64,000 bases of DNA. It comes from Gaiellaceae bacterium (GTDB taxonomy: Bacteria > Actinomycetota > Thermoleophilia > Gaiellales > Gaiellaceae). Location of the stretch: the NCBI GenBank assembly GCA_035688315.1, contig DASSND010000066.1:4237-68236 (forward strand). Reading direction: 5' to 3'. A model generated the notes under the pieces. It saw only the letters and a list, made by a program, of their open reading frames with translations. It had not been told where the DNA came from and ran no database searches. The position numbers and the translations under genes are program-made. This document shows, piece after piece, positions 28,487 to 36,860 of this stretch. How positions within the stretch are numbered: position 1 is the stretch's first letter; each line of letters begins with the position of its first letter.

Positions 28487-29361
28487 TCGGCCACCCGCGC
28501 CTCGACGGCGACCGGCGCGCGCGCGAGCCGCACCGCGACGAGCGCGACGAGCACGACGCAGACCGCGGCGACCGCGATCCAGGCGATCCCGCCCGGCAGG
28601 GCGAGCCGCGCGCCCGACACGAGCAGGACGAGCGCGAGCAGCAGCCGCAGCGGCCGGTCGCCGACCGCGAGCGTCAGCTGCGAGCCCGCGAGCACGCCCG
28701 GGATCGACCCGAGCAGGAGCCACGCGAGCGTGTGCAGGTCGACGTTGCCGGCGACGAGGTGCCCGATCCCGGCCACCCAGAGCAGCGCCGCCGCGTGCAC
28801 GATGTCGGTGCCGACGACCTTGTGGGCGCGCAGCGGGAAGACGACGAGCAGCGTCAGCCCGAAGAAGACGCCGCTGCCGACCGAGGTCAGGCCGACGAGG
28901 AAGCCGCCGAGCAGCCCGATCGCGACCGCGGCGAGCCGGTCGCGGCGCCGCAGCACGAACTCCTCCGGATGGCTGCGGAAGCGGACGAGCGCCTTCAGCA
29001 GCATCCCGAGCCCGCCGGCGAGCAGCACGGCGCCGAGCACGATCCCCTCGACCGAGTCGAGCCCGCCGCCGTAGCGGCGGTGGAGCCAGGTGGCGAGGGC
29101 GACGCCGCCGAGCGACGCGGGCGCGCTGCCGGCGAGCATCCAGCCGGAGAGCCGGGCCTGCACCGTCCCGAGCCGGTGGTGGCGCAGGCCGCCGACGCTC
29201 TTGAAGATCGCGCCGTGCAGCACGTCGGTGCCGATCGCGGTCACGGGGTCGAAGCCGAAGAGGAAGACGAGCGCCGGCGTCATGAGCGAGCCGCCGCCCA
29301 TCCCGGTCAACCCGACGAGCGCGCCGATCAGCAGGCCCGTCAGGGTGAACTGCCAGGTCAT
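28483..29361 (-). CDS. TauE/SafE family sulfite/organosulfonate exporter (copy 2, tandem paralog)
   Basis: In-frame ATG at 29361 (ATGA overlap with the cysNC stop). Sequence: [32 protein letters not shown]..., [16 protein letters not shown]. 28 of the first 29 residues are identical to copy 1. Confidence 0.85.
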
Positions 29362-31259
29362 TCGACCAACCCGCGTTCCTGCAGGACGCGGAAGACCTCC
29401 TCGGCGGCGGCCGCCACGTCGAACGTCGCCATGTCGAGATGGACGTCGGGCGCCTCGGGCGGCTCGTACGCGCCGCCGGCGCCGGTGAGGTCGCCGATCG
29501 CGCCCGACTCGGCCCGCGCGTAGAGCCCCTTGCGGTCGCGCTGCGCCGCCAGCTCGGCCGGCAGGTCGACGTGCACCTCGACGAACTCGCCCTCGGGGAA
29601 GAGCGAGCGCGCCGTCTCGCGGTCGGCCCGGAACGGCGACACGAACGCGGCGAGCACGATCAGGCCCGCGTCGGTCATCAGCTTCGCCACCTCGCCCGCC
29701 CGGCGGTTGTTCTCGGCGCGGTCGGCGTCGCTGAACGAGAGGTCCTTCGAGAGCCCGTGCCGCAGGTTGTCGCCGTCGATCAGGACGGTGTGGCGGCCGA
29801 GCGCGTGCAGCCGCTTCTCGAGCGCGTTCGCGACGGACGACTTGCCCGCGCCGGGCAGCCCGGTGAACCAGACGACGAACGGCCGCTGCCCGAGCAGCGC
29901 GGCGCGCGCCTCCCGGTCGATCTCCAGCTCCTGCCACGGCACGCTCTCGTCGCGGCGCGCGCCCGAGCGGAGCAGACCGGCGCCGACGGTGTGGTTGGTG
30001 ATCCGATCGATCAGGATGAAGCCGCCGGTGTCGCGGTTCTCGACGTACGGGTCGAACGCGAGCGGCGAGCCGGTCTCGAGCTGGACGACGCCGATCTCGT
30101 TCAGGTCGAGCTGGTTCGCGGCGATCCGCTCCAGCGTGTCGACGTCGAGCTTGTAGTGGATCGGCGCCACCGTCGCGGGCACGGTCTTCGTCCCGCAGCG
30201 CATCAGGTAGGTGCGCCCGCGCAGGAGCGGCTCCTCCGCCATCCAGACGACGGTCGCCTCGAACTGCTCGGCGACCCGCGCCGGCGCGTCGGCCGCGACG
30301 ACCACGTCGCCGCGCGAGACGTCGATCTCGTCGGCGAGCGTCAGCGTCACCGCCTGCCCCGCGACCGCGCGCTCGAGGTCGGTCTCGAAGCCGACGACGC
30401 GCTCGACGGTCGTCTCGCGCCGGTTCGGCAGGACGAGGACGCGGTCGCCGGGCGCGACCGAGCCGCCGGCGACGGTGCCGGCGAAGCCGCGGAAGTCGCT
30501 GCTGGGCCGGTTCACCCACTGCACCGGCAGCCGGAACGGCGCGTCCTGCATCCGCTCCTGGTCGACCTCGACCGCCTCGAGGTAGCCCATCAGCGACGGC
30601 CCGTCGTACCAGGGCATCGCCTCGGAGCGCTCGATCACGTTGTCGCCGCGCAGCGCCGAGAGCGGGATCAGCGTGAAGCCCTCCAGCCCGAGCTGCGCCG
30701 CGAACTCGGCGTACTCCCGCTCGATCTCGCGGAAGCGGCCCTCCGAGAACTCGACGAGGTCCATCTTGTTGCAGGCGACCGCGACGTGGCGGATCCCGAG
30801 CAGGTGGACGAGATAGCTGTGGCGCCGCGTCTGCGTGAGCACGCCCTTGCGCGCGTCGAGCAGGATCACCGCGCAGTCGGCGGTGGAGGCGCCGGTGACC
30901 ATGTTGCGCGTGTACTGCTCGTGGCCGGGCGTGTCGGCGACGATGTACTTGCGCCTGTCGGTCGAGAAGAAGCGGTAGGCGACGTCGATCGTGATCCCCT
31001 GCTCGCGCTCGGCGGCGAGCCCGTCGAGCAGGAGCGCGAAGTCCAGCTCCTCGCCCTGGGTGCCGACGCGCCGCGAGTCGGCCTCGAGCGCGGTGAGCTG
31101 GTCCTCGAAGAGCATCTGCGCCTCGTAGAGCAGGCGGCCGATCAGGGTCGACTTGCCGTCGTCGACCGAGCCGCAGGTGATGAAGCGCAGCAGCGACTTG
31201 TGCTCGTGCGCGTCGAGGTAGGCGAGGATGTCCTCGGAGATCAGGTCGGTCTGCGCCAC
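29358..31259 (-). CDS. cysNC: Bifunctional sulfate adenylyltransferase subunit 1 (GTPase) / adenylylsulfate kinase
   Basis: In-frame GTG at 31259. GTPase motifs are present: [34 protein letters not shown] and ACNKMDL. The C-terminal APS-kinase domain has [32 protein letters not shown] and KGLYARA. Confidence 0.9.
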
Positions 31260-35625: not shown

Positions 35626-36860
35626 GCTCTCGCTTTCCCGGCGGCGGCCGCGCCCGCGCGGCGGCCGTAGACGACGCATTCGAGGAGGCTGTTCCCCATC
35701 ATGCGGTTGCGGCCGTGCGTGCCGCCCGCGATCTCGCCGCAGGCGTAGAGGCCGTCCAGCGTCGTCTCGGCGTTGGTGTCGATGACGAGCCCGCCGTTCT
35801 GGTAGTGGAGGACAGGGTAGGTGAGGATCTTCTCGCGCAGCGGGTCGATCCCCCCGGCGCGGTAGCGGCGAAGCATGTACGGGAGCGAGACCTCGGCGTC
35901 GCGCTCCGGGATGCGGGTCGTGTCGAGCCAGACCGCGGGGCGGCCGTCCTCGGTCTGGACGCCCCTGCCCTTCGCGACCTCGTCGAAGATCGCCTGCGAG
36001 ACGACGTCGCGGGGCGCGAGCGAGTCGCAGAACTCCTCGCCGTCGGCGTTGACGAGCACGGCGCCGTAGGCGCGCGTCGTCTCGGGGATCGAGTAGCCCT
36101 GCATCGTCTTCGGCCAGGCGCCGCCGTTCGGGTGGTACTGGAGCGCGTCGAGGTCGCGCGCCTCGGCGCCCAGCTCGATCGCGGCGCGGGTGACCTCGCC
36201 GGTCGCGCCGGGATGGTTGGTGGACAGCTCGCCGCGCTCCTCGGCCTCGCGGTAGCAGCGCCCGCCGGCCGCGAGCACGACGGTGCCCGCGTCGAGCTCG
36301 TGCTCGCCGCAGCGCGCGCGCCAGCCGTTGTCTGCGGGCTCGAGCGCGCGGAGCGGCGACTTCGGGAAGACGGTGACGCCGCTCGCCTCGACCGCGTGCC
36401 GCAGCACGGAGGTGATCGCGAGCCCGGTCTGGTCGCCGACCTGGAGCAGCCGCTTCGCGGAGGCGCCGCCGCACCGGGCGAGCCGGTAGCCGCCGTCCTC
36501 CTCGCGCGTGAACTCGACGCCCAGCTCCTCGAGCCAGTGGATCGCGCCGGGCGCGTCGGCGGTGAGCGCCTCGACGAGCCGCATGTCCGCGGTCTCGTGA
36601 CTGGAGCGCCACACGTCCTGGGCGTGCTGCTCCGGCGAGTCGTCTGCGCCGAAGGCGGCCTGGATGCCGCCCTGCGCCTTCGCCGAGTTGCAGGACTGGA
36701 TCGAGCCCTTCGTCGCGAGCGCGACCCGCGCGCCGGCCCGCTCGGCGGACACGGCCGCCGCGAGCCCGGAGGCCCCGGAGCCGATCACGAGCACGTCGAA
36801 ATGACCGTTCGTCGTCGCCACGCCGCGCGTGACTATACCCAAGCGCTCCTCATGCGTCAC
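35622..36860 (-). CDS. FAD-dependent oxidoreductase of the fumarate reductase / succinate dehydrogenase flavoprotein / L-aspartate oxidase family (short form)
   Basis: 412 aa, GTG start. Contains FDVLVIGSGASGLAAAV (dinucleotide fold), AKAQGGI, LQYHPNGG (the HPT-like active-site block) and YACGEIAGGTHGRNRMMGNSLLECVVYGRRAG (the C-terminal FAD block). It lacks the long C-terminal helical domain of SdhA/FrdA. Confidence 0.75.
   Translation of the reverse strand: MTHEERLGIVTRGVATTNGHFDVLVIGSGASGLAAAVSAERAGARVALATKGSIQSCNSAKAQGGIQAAFGADDSPEQHAQDVWRSSHETADMRLVEALTADAPGAIHWLEELGVEFTREEDGGYRLARCGGASAKRLLQVGDQTGLAITSVLRHAVEASGVTVFPKSPLRALEPADNGWRARCGEHELDAGTVVLAAGGRCYREAEERGELSTNHPGATGEVTRAAIELGAEARDLDALQYHPNGGAWPKTMQGYSIPETTRAYGAVLVNADGEEFCDSLAPRDVVSQAIFDEVAKGRGVQTEDGRPAVWLDTTRIPERDAEVSLPYMLRRYRAGGIDPLREKILTYPVLHYQNGGLVIDTNAETTLDGLYACGEIAGGTHGRNRMMGNSLLECVVYGRRAGAAAAGKARA

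Follow-up and report, generated by a model that had tools for sequence, protein, structure and literature searches.

Organosulfonates make up a large part of the organic sulfur in soils, where the Gaiellales are among the most abundant Actinobacteria, and to our knowledge few biosynthetic sources of these compounds are known, namely sulfoquinovose, coenzyme M (CoM), the sulfolactate of spores, capnine and a few others. The enzyme phosphosulfolactate synthase (ComA) joins sulfite to phosphoenolpyruvate, and two of the described systems closest to the locus studied here start from it: the yit locus of Bacillus subtilis, which leads to sulfolactate (PMC517825), and the bacterial CoM pathway, in which XcbC was shown experimentally to eliminate phosphate from phosphosulfolactate, giving sulfoacrylate (PMC9457059). 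Here we analyse a stretch of 64,000 nucleotides (nt) from a Gaiellaceae bacterium (GenBank assembly GCA_035688315.1, contig DASSND010000066.1, positions 4,237 to 68,236), called the window below and numbered from its first letter, in which comA belongs to a string of ten minus-strand genes together with sulfate-activating enzymes, a class I iron–sulfur hydro-lyase (FumAB) and a flavoprotein that binds flavin adenine dinucleotide (FAD). On balance, we consider it probable that this is a dedicated organosulfonate-biosynthesis operon, in which the product of ComA would pass through FumAB and the flavoprotein to a surface glycan. The literature searched contained no description of ComA combined with a hydro-lyase of class I and a flavoprotein of the fumarate reductase type, or of ComA in polysaccharide loci.

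The data examined were the window and related loci with up to 10 kb of flanking sequence. Since the window has about 75% G+C, reading frames were set by third-position GC and start codons by inspection. Fifty of its roughly 70 open reading frames (ORFs) were scanned against Pfam, and the other 20 or so were read by eye as MFS, TetR, AsnB, UvrD, CapD, DegT, radical-SAM, prenyl synthase and similar proteins; the ATP-grasp gene at 15799-16815 was scanned against NCBIfam, not Pfam. The ten genes run from 36821 to 27602 in the order FAD flavoprotein, fumA, fumB, comA, cysH, cysC, cysD, cysNC, tauE1, tauE2 (Table 1), with overlaps of 4 nt (flavoprotein/fumA), 1 nt (fumA/fumB), 14 nt (fumB/comA), 32 nt (comA/cysH), 4 nt (cysH/cysC), 4 nt (cysC/cysD), 1 nt (cysD/cysNC), 4 nt (cysNC/tauE1) and 4 nt (tauE1/tauE2). 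An earlier reading of this DNA, made by a model without database searches (the sequence-only reading), had listed a sulfate-to-sulfonate operon with overlaps of 1-32 nt at all junctions; Pfam and NCBIfam recover all of its genes on the minus strand where it had placed them, and the overlaps hold as well, given a CTG start for cysD. The 4-nt cysC/cysD overlap (CTGA) exists only if cysD starts at the CTG at 32165-32167, whereas the first ATG would leave a 53-nt gap after cysC and remove about 19 conserved N-terminal residues; because this conserved N-terminus needs it, CTG is taken as the start. The range given in that reading, which extended to 36860, was right as to the content of the operon but not as to the start of the flavoprotein, for which 36860 is an alternative: the most likely start is the GTG at 36821 (399 amino acids, aa), as in the 100% identical NCBI entry "FAD-dependent oxidoreductase [Gaiellaceae bacterium]".

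Adjoining this start codon is a promoter-like site that is the sole sigma-70-like match in positions 23000-37500 (14.5 kb, with 0.3 matches expected by chance), which suggests that the mRNA of the operon would be leaderless or have a short leader. Judged by their overlapping junctions and this single promoter-like site, the ten genes are read as one unit. An Rfam scan of the window gave no match. The G+C content is 0.70 over 30000-36000, which holds the cys, comA and fumAB genes, compared with 0.74-0.78 on either side.

ComA matches Pfam PF02679 over its full length (286.8 bits against a cut-off of 25.2, E-value 1.7e-85, model positions 2-243 of 243), so that it passes the profile check proposed in the sequence-only reading. 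Against NCBIfam arch_ComA (TIGR03849) it reaches 240.7 bits and misses the stricter archaeal equivalog cut-off of 280. Its nearest solved relative is YitD of B. subtilis (1u83, 5.8e-59), followed by ComA of M. jannaschii (1qwg, 3.5e-45), both aligned end to end. The cut-offs of NCBIfam are also cleared by CysD (NF009214, 539 bits versus 413), the CysN-CysC fusion (NF004035, 992 versus 715), CysH (NF002537, 212 versus 154) and the apsK domain. CysH has the motifs SIGDTHST and ECGIH and lacks the CC...CxxC iron–sulfur motif, which assigns it to the type that reduces 3'-phosphoadenosine 5'-phosphosulfate (PAPS), and a kinase for adenosine 5'-phosphosulfate (APS) is therefore needed. Identity between the stand-alone CysC and the kinase domain of CysNC is only 41%, so the operon has two APS kinases of different origin and not a recent duplicate. 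By these assignments, CysD and CysN-CysC would convert sulfate to APS and PAPS, with CysC adding kinase capacity, CysH would make sulfite from PAPS, and ComA would condense sulfite with phosphoenolpyruvate to 2-phospho-3-sulfolactate. Sulfite reductase (NIR_SIR), cysteine synthase (PALP) and ComB domains were absent from the 50 ORFs scanned against Pfam, with the others read by eye, in line with what had been stated earlier for the first two enzymes. Very probably, this part of the operon is dedicated to supplying ComA with sulfite.

The same arrangement was followed in related genomes. A ComA-based scan with one genome per GTDB species gave 491 relatives, of which the best 80 are all from Gaiellales (80-88% identity); synteny was assessed by tblastn with Pfam spot checks, and the 58 Gaiellales loci with enough flank were counted. 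FAD-FumA-FumB lies directly upstream of comA in 48 of the 58, and tauE follows comA or the cys genes in all but one (57/58), tauE2 being the conserved copy. Between comA and tauE, 19 loci have nothing, 16 have cysH-cysC-sat, 20 have cysH(-cysC)-cysD'-cysN', and three have cysD-cysNC as in the window. The cysD'-cysN' type genes that are usual in Gaiellales are about 50% identical to the window counterparts, and relatives of about 90% identity to the window cysD-cysNC occur in only three of the 80 loci; this pattern and the drop in G+C suggest that cysD-cysNC is a recent replacement by transfer. Because one slot was filled by at least three non-orthologous activation systems, the supply of sulfite appears to have been selected for co-expression with ComA. 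The genomes of the 19 loci without cys genes must obtain sulfite elsewhere. This co-occurrence, which the sequence-only reading had named as a check, gives support to its claim that the sulfite is made for C-S bond formation and not for cysteine, and so does the FAD-ComA-Sat operon of the Miltoncostaeaceae described below. In two loci the cassette looks decayed: L051 (8639-10001) has the flavoprotein gene but, ahead of comA, no more of fumB than its last 38 codons, and in L021 (9428-10011) fumB is split at codon 98. These variants may reflect real decay or assembly errors.

The two enzymes encoded upstream of ComA belong to the families that act on fumarate. FumA scores 306 bits with NCBIfam NF004885, a fumarate hydratase equivalog with a cut-off of 276, is 44% identical to the fumarate hydratase alpha subunit of M. 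jannaschii (7xky_A, 7.8e-74), and keeps all three cluster cysteines (CQDTG, GKPCPP, QCWA). FumB matches 2isb and 7xky_B in the PDB (1e-33 to 1e-31), keeps the TTSARM and GKGG motifs, and in NCBIfam clears only a subfamily-domain cut-off (154 versus 145 bits). The flavoprotein matches Pfam FAD_binding_2 over its full length, and its relatives in the PDB are SdhA, NadB, Fcc3 and FrdA (1e-45 to 1e-39). It ends at about residue 399, where these relatives continue for another 70-240 residues, so that the C-terminal helical domain is absent. Aligned with Fcc3, NadB and SdhA, it keeps the His/Arg/His/Arg site that serves fumarate binding and protonation, and, like Fcc3, it has Asn at the position of the His that carries covalent FAD. 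All NCBIfam equivalog cut-offs (NadB, FrdA, SdhA, TfrA) are missed widely, the best being nadB with 260 bits against 453. In view of the missing C-terminal domain and the missed cut-offs, the name "L-aspartate oxidase", which is common in databases and which the JGI annotation also gives to this protein, is in our reading not justified for these flavoproteins.

More distant cassettes point to the substrate of the flavoprotein. Among cluster representatives, which were searched exhaustively, short flavoproteins (about 400 aa) make up several divergent clusters. One of them, 56% identical to the window protein, belongs to the Miltoncostaeaceae, from another order of Thermoleophilia, and includes the cultured Miltoncostaea marina; in four genomes of this family a LysR gene is followed by FAD-ComA-Sat with 4-nt overlaps, and FumAB, TauE and CysH are not present. 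Flavoproteins 33-38% identical to that of the window are found on contigs of 32-54% GC. One of these loci (L087, 47% GC) reads Wzy_C-FAD-FumA-FumB-ComA-His_Phos_1-PIG-L-ATP-grasp; its FumA and FumB are 50.5% and 57% identical to those of the window. Others carry a Lyase_1 protein resembling XcbC, in the order FAD-XcbC-like-ComA (L088, L089, L091, L092), ComA-FAD-XcbC-like (L096) or ATP-grasp-FAD-XcbC-like with a PAPS_reduct gene nearby (L086). The Lyase_1 proteins of L086, L088, L089, L091 and L096 score 387-461 bits with NCBIfam CoM_syn_XcbC (NF052535), compared with 255-273 bits for argH. Two non-homologous routes to sulfoacrylate would thus adjoin the same flavoprotein, which argues for sulfoacrylate as its substrate, and since both devices converge on the sulfonate analogue of fumarate, reduction of this compound is the most economical role for the enzyme. 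In the window itself no Lyase_1 protein was found among the scanned ORFs, and tblastn gave no match to an XcbC-type lyase.

A metagenome scan and a neighbour-joining tree place the ComA-linked flavoproteins in two clades, one from Thermoleophilia and one from the low-GC contigs, and a third, separate clade occurs with FumAB alone or with nothing recognisable. In one archaeal cluster the catalytic Arg is missing, and ComA is absent from the neighbourhood. In L125, L130, L134, L135, L142-L144 and L149, from human-gut and other metagenomes, a short flavoprotein is followed, after a gap of about 300-400 nt, by FumA-FumB without ComA; these are probably genuine soluble fumarate reductase/fumarase pairs. 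The pairing in this sister clade fits the idea that a module for malate, fumarate and succinate was recruited to the sulfonate analogues of these acids.

From these observations we propose the following route. A phosphatase encoded elsewhere would remove phosphate from 2-phospho-3-sulfolactate, or the hydro-lyase itself might do so. FumAB would then dehydrate (R)-sulfolactate, the analogue of L-malate, to sulfoacrylate, and the flavoprotein would reduce sulfoacrylate, the analogue of fumarate, to 3-sulfopropanoate, the analogue of succinate; we lean slightly towards this last conversion. The gene context thus suggests that FumAB is a putative (R)-sulfolactate dehydratase and the flavoprotein a putative sulfoacrylate reductase. 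In the last steps, which we put forward with more reserve, the acid might be activated by an ATP-grasp or AMP-binding ligase and become an anionic group on a surface-glycan amino sugar whose amine had been freed by a PIG-L deacetylase, while the TauE permeases might import sulfate or sulfite or export free product.

The evidence for this fate of the product lies in the surroundings of the cassettes. In the window, the genes for a FlgD_ig protein, a Wzy_C-like protein and a PIG-L deacetylase (24523..27574) follow tauE2 and overlap one another by 4 nt, and the trio comes after tauE in most Gaiellales loci, so it may be part of the same functional unit and serve attachment to a glycan. The PIG-L protein is 55% identical to that of L087, where it comes after ComA-His_Phos_1, and in L115 it is found immediately after tauE. 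A GNAT gene at 23738-24526 was considered as a further member and dropped, as it is not beside PIG-L in related loci. The ATP-grasp ligase at 15799-16815 is a tentative candidate for the attachment and is 35% identical (335 aa, 1e-76) to the ATP-grasp protein that follows PIG-L in L087. All four long low-GC contigs are polysaccharide loci (Wzy_C, flippase, Bac_transf, glycosyltransferases, Poly_export, DegT), and an ATP-grasp or AMP-binding enzyme adjoins the low-GC cassettes. The window is comparable, since positions 1-23000 and 42000-59000 form a cell-envelope glycan island with GT4, LPG_synthase_TM, NAD-epimerases, methyltransferases, Bac_transf, DUF354 and NAGPA with FlgD_ig. That the acid is ligated to a surface polymer, at an amino sugar freed of its N-acetyl group, is, on this context, plausible but short of probable. 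Broader still, and advanced only tentatively, is the view that a three-step route to 3-sulfopropanoate (ComA; an XcbC-like lyase, or a phosphatase with an Fe-S hydro-lyase; a sulfoacrylate reductase) is widespread in Gaiellales and unrelated low-GC bacteria, that its product would be amide-linked to the amino sugars of surface glycans as a counterpart of succinylation, and that the Gaiellaceae have a private supply of reduced sulfate for it.

As to the permeases, TauE1 and TauE2 match the Pfam family over their full length (137 and 128 bits against a cut-off of 32.6) and are 61% identical to each other. The sequence-only reading had described two TauE/SafE exporters; the two genes are there, but export is only one option for them. 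In L017 (13624-18205) a sulfate-type ABC transporter stands in the place of tauE, comprising two SBP_bac_11 binding proteins and a CysA-like, TOBE-domain ATPase, and because of this importer and of the lack of TauE in cassettes outside Gaiellales, uptake of sulfate or sulfite would be at least as likely as sulfonate export.

Several observations weigh against the proposed operon function. ComB, His_Phos_1 and XcbC-like lyases were all missing from the window and from the 10 kb on either side of comA in the 80 Gaiellales loci, and since no phosphatase is linked, one step of the pathway is unaccounted for in the Gaiellaceae. The earlier suggestion that ComB is replaced here by three different enzymes is thus right in that the scanned ORFs have no ComB, but a simple replacement does not follow, as on paper a phosphatase (such as His_Phos_1 in L087) is still required. 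In their substrate-binding residues FumAB and the flavoprotein do not differ from true fumarate enzymes, and their sequences carry no mark of specificity for a sulfonate, and the FumA tree is by itself indecisive, with 44% identity to a true fumarate hydratase beside 50.5% to the FumA of the L087 cassette. The flavoprotein lacks both a domain and a partner through which electrons could enter, which fits a NadB-type oxidase as well as a reductase. The lyase step is not always linked, as Miltoncostaea, L051 and L115 have FAD-ComA without FumAB, and 9-10 Gaiellales loci have comA-cys-tauE without adjoining FAD-FumAB, the genes upstream in these (methyltransferase, LysR, Fe-ADH, cyclase) including nothing relevant. 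The synteny seen in Gaiellales stems from a single family, and part of it is inherited. The candidate ATP-grasp gene is on the opposite strand, 7.7 kb beyond PIG-L in the downstream direction and about 11 kb away from tauE2. Finally, we know of no sulfonated glycan of this kind, and none was found in the literature searched.

The other explanations differ in how much of the locus they account for. That the cys genes serve ordinary assimilation of sulfate for cysteine, with ComA and its neighbours as passengers, would agree with the canonical character of CysD, CysN, CysC and CysH, but we consider it very improbable, given that sulfite reductase and cysteine synthase are missing among the scanned ORFs, that cysH overlaps comA by 32 nt, that 19 related loci retain FAD-FumAB-ComA-TauE without any cys gene, and that the slot beside comA received three different activation systems. 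A quite improbable alternative has phosphosulfolactate or sulfolactate as the end product, as in Bacillus, with the flavoprotein and FumAB as ordinary enzymes of C4-dicarboxylates that merely lie upstream. The score of FumA above the fumarate hydratase equivalog cut-off, the active-site residues shared with true fumarate enzymes, the JGI label and the roughly ten loci with comA-cys-tauE alone all speak for it; it does not explain the overlaps of 4 nt (FAD-fumA) and 14 nt (fumB-comA), the same gene order in L087 or the XcbC-like lyase that elsewhere takes the place of FumAB, the separate clades of the ComA-linked flavoproteins, or a flavoprotein that has no C-terminal domain and falls far below the NadB cut-offs. 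A housekeeping fumarase or NadB that happens to lie upstream was rejected on the grounds of the conserved cassette in distant phyla and the separate clades. Fairly improbable, too, is that the flavoprotein acts as an oxidase or dehydrogenase turning (phospho)sulfolactate into sulfopyruvate or its enol phosphate, with FumAB in an accessory role, for example as an enol-keto tautomerase (an activity reportedly found in E. coli FumA), and sulfopyruvate or a cysteate-type compound as product. The nadB profile is indeed the best NCBIfam match (260 bits), the flavoprotein stands alone without an electron-donor domain, and FAD-ComA without FumAB in Miltoncostaea, L051 and L115 would suit a dispensable FumAB. 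The lyase of the XcbC-type cassettes, however, would yield sulfoacrylate, a compound open to reduction but not to oxidation to sulfopyruvate; neither an aminotransferase nor a sulfopyruvate decarboxylase is linked, and family members outside the ComA clades pair with FumAB, as the sequence from malate through fumarate to succinate would predict.

A reductase of quite another kind was also considered, namely that the flavoprotein is an AprA-like APS or PAPS reductase which makes sulfite, so that Sat, the flavoprotein and ComA would be a self-sufficient trio. In Miltoncostaea the operon consists of just FAD-ComA-Sat and cysH is not nearby, AprA is in the same flavoprotein superfamily, and a weak match exists in the PDB to the alpha subunit of the PAPS reductase of M. 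thermolithotrophicus (1.3e-7). This reading is nevertheless extremely improbable and was rejected, since SdhA, NadB and Fcc3 are far nearer (1e-45 to 1e-39) and all four dicarboxylate-binding and catalytic residues of the His/Arg/His/Arg site are kept; it would also be redundant with CysH in the window, has no AprB-like Fe-S partner, and leaves 19 loci with the flavoprotein and no sulfate-activating gene. Production of CoM was rejected as well and has hardly any probability left: sulfoacrylate is an intermediate of the bacterial route (PMC9457059) and ComA is the first enzyme of both known routes, but no later enzyme of either pathway is in the window, where the scanned ORFs include none of XcbC, XcbD, XcbE, XcbA, ComB, ComC and ComDE, and no genes for CoM-dependent alkene or epoxide metabolism were seen, as agrees with the earlier remark that CoM is not the obvious end product. 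The alternative that deserves most weight, although we still hold it to be unlikely, is the one favoured in the sequence-only reading, in which 3-sulfopropanoate or sulfolactate is a free solute, exported by TauE or accumulated, and not attached to a glycan. In its favour, TauE follows comA in 57 of the 58 Gaiellales loci even where cys genes are lacking, a TauE protein of Enterococcus gilvus is annotated as a probable 3-sulfopropionate exporter (PMC11489063), and B. subtilis spores accumulate free sulfolactate (PMC517825). Against it, no TauE occurs in Miltoncostaea or in any low-GC cassette, the sulfate ABC transporter that replaces TauE in L017 points to uptake, and ligases and glycan genes recur beside the cassette.

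Table 1. Features of the operon, its promoter region and the neighbouring glycan genes in the window.
Feature	Position	Strand	Basis or remark
Promoter-like site, GTGACG - 17 nt - TATAGT	36832..36860	-	Just 5' of the flavoprotein start codon; consensus match only
FAD flavoprotein, 399 aa, fumarate-reductase/L-aspartate-oxidase type	35622..36821	-	Pfam FAD_binding_2, 3.7e-68
fumA, class I (Fe-S) hydro-lyase alpha	34729..35625	-	Pfam Fumerase, 3.1e-91
fumB, class I hydro-lyase beta	34142..34729	-	Pfam Fumerase_C, 9.9e-28
comA, phosphosulfolactate synthase	33358..34155	-	Pfam PF02679, 1.7e-85
cysH, PAPS reductase type, 221 aa	32724..33389	-	PAPS_reduct, 2.3e-40
cysC, stand-alone APS kinase	32164..32727	-	Pfam APS_kinase, 1.3e-60
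cysD, sulfate adenylyltransferase small subunit	31259..32167	-	NCBIfam, 4.6e-162; CTG start inferred
cysN-cysC fusion, ATP sulfurylase GTPase subunit and APS kinase	29358..31259	-	NCBIfam NF004035
tauE1, TauE/SafE-family permease	28483..29361	-	Pfam TauE, 1e-39
tauE2, TauE/SafE-family permease	27602..28486	-	Pfam TauE, 7.8e-37
FlgD_ig membrane-anchored protein	26627-27574	-	Pfam FlgD_ig
Wzy_C-like polymerase/ligase, 491 aa	25155-26630	-	Homologue in L011 matches Wzy_C
PIG-L N-deacetylase	24523-25158	-	Pfam PIG-L
ATP-grasp ligase, tentative candidate for attaching the sulfonated acid	15799..16815	+	NCBIfam, PRK12767-type
Three ATP-grasp/L-amino-acid-ligase-type genes, the candidate above among them	5096-6304, 9944-11152, 15799-16815		Glycan island
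Polysacc_synt flippase	17410-18849		Glycan island
AsnB-like (asparagine synthase-like)	45857-47743		Read by eye
CapD-like	53125-55086		Read by eye
DegT	55083-56171		Read by eye and blastp match

Other parts of the window deserve brief mention. Divergent from the operon, on the plus strand at 36969-41427, is a cluster resembling those for ribosomally synthesised and post-translationally modified peptides. It comprises a Cys-rich precursor candidate of 53 aa, MFDPETSPGLDLTVAERGHGAGHALPAFPLCCCLVLCVALGCSSSCAKANKAE, at 36969-37130 with a GGAGG-type ribosome-binding site, a protein without a Pfam match (about 37130-38107), a YcaO cyclodehydratase (about 38082-39440), a nitroreductase-family dehydrogenase (39437-40240) and a fusion of a CAAX protease with an ABC ATPase (40237-41427); at least 12 of the related Gaiellales loci have YcaO and nitroreductase homologues on the upstream side of their FAD gene. 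In the glycan island, the plus-strand ORF at 43091-44761 matches Bac_transf only at residues 361-544, and its first 360 or so codons have no Pfam match and an odd composition rich in Arg, Glu and Leu, so it is probably over-extended, with its true start near 44100. On the minus strand at 59495-63993, two radical-SAM proteins like MqnC and MqnE of the futalosine pathway, a polyprenyl synthase and a UbiE-type methyltransferase were recognised by eye, and this segment may be one for menaquinone biosynthesis.

If our reading is correct, the class I fumarase family would have a member that dehydrates sulfolactate and the fumarate reductase family one that reduces sulfoacrylate, both of them new activities, and the cassette would be tied through sulfoacrylate to the recently solved bacterial CoM pathway. 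The finding also draws attention to the name L-aspartate oxidase as a systematic misannotation of these flavoproteins. Relatives of the flavoprotein are abundant among metagenome proteins (at least 8000 matches, with identity above 82% among the 120 matches listed), and for this reason the sulfonate of these organisms could be a relevant source of carbon-bonded sulfur in soils. Since the FAD-ComA pair occurs in the cultured Miltoncostaea marina (CP064655.1), the idea is directly testable. The literature searched on phosphosulfolactate in connection with fumarase or fumarate reductase, with sulfoacrylate or sulfopropanoate, with polysaccharides, and with Gaiella and related Thermoleophilia, in part by searches too broad to tell much, held no description of the cassette. 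The genome paper of Gaiella occulta mentions neither sulfolactate nor fumarate, cysteine or mycothiol, its one passage on sulfur concerning the absence of dissimilatory sulfur genes.

Of the described systems, the nearest is that of B. subtilis, where yitCD and yitBA-yisZ likewise place a second, dedicated set of sat, APS kinase and PAPS reductase genes beside a ComA homologue, for a C3 sulfonate and not for cysteine (PMC517825). The sequence-only reading had named this locus correctly, and its YitD is also the closest solved relative of our ComA. Bacillus, however, has ComB (YitC), which the scanned window ORFs lack, and stops at sulfolactate, whereas in the window a hydro-lyase and a flavoprotein are translationally coupled upstream of ComA, TauE follows, and the context is a glycan island and not sporulation. 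The bacterial CoM pathway of Xanthobacter autotrophicus Py2 (XcbB-XcbC-XcbD-XcbE-XcbA) shares the first step, as XcbB is a ComA, and probably also sulfoacrylate, given that the low-GC cassettes carry an XcbC-like lyase of the aspartase/fumarase superfamily (PMC9457059). The window differs in using an Fe-S class I hydro-lyase and no XcbC, and in having as the third enzyme a candidate flavoprotein reductase where XcbD adds cysteine; no XcbE, which depends on pyridoxal phosphate, and no XcbA, with its 2Fe-2S cluster, were seen in the operon or among the scanned ORFs, so no thiol would be introduced. With the branch from malate through fumarate to succinate the operon has in common the same two enzyme families in the same order, with conserved active sites; in gut and other metagenomes, members of a sister clade of the flavoprotein are found beside FumAB with no ComA. 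Here, in contrast, both enzymes are in one operon with ComA and sulfite genes, the substrates would be sulfonate analogues, and the flavoprotein has no C-terminal domain or electron-transfer partner.

The remaining two comparisons concern the fate of the acid and the chemistry of the three sulfonates. In the misNOPQ genes for misaugamycin (acyl carrier protein, acyl-CoA ligase, ComA homologue and glyoxalase), an actinobacterial ComA homologue is likewise combined with activation of a carboxylate, and a sulfonated acyl group is installed (PMC9136965), but the other tailoring enzymes differ, the group is a C2 sulfoacetyl and not a C3 unit, and the acceptor is a glycopeptide antibiotic and not a glycan. 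In Roseovarius nubinhibens, according to a thesis cited in PMC11489063, 3-sulfopropanoate is converted through sulfoacrylate to sulfolactate. The same three compounds would thus occur in sequence, in that case in the reverse direction, in a degradative route linked neither to ComA nor to sulfate activation, whereas in the Gaiellaceae operon they would be formed from sulfate in the direction of biosynthesis.

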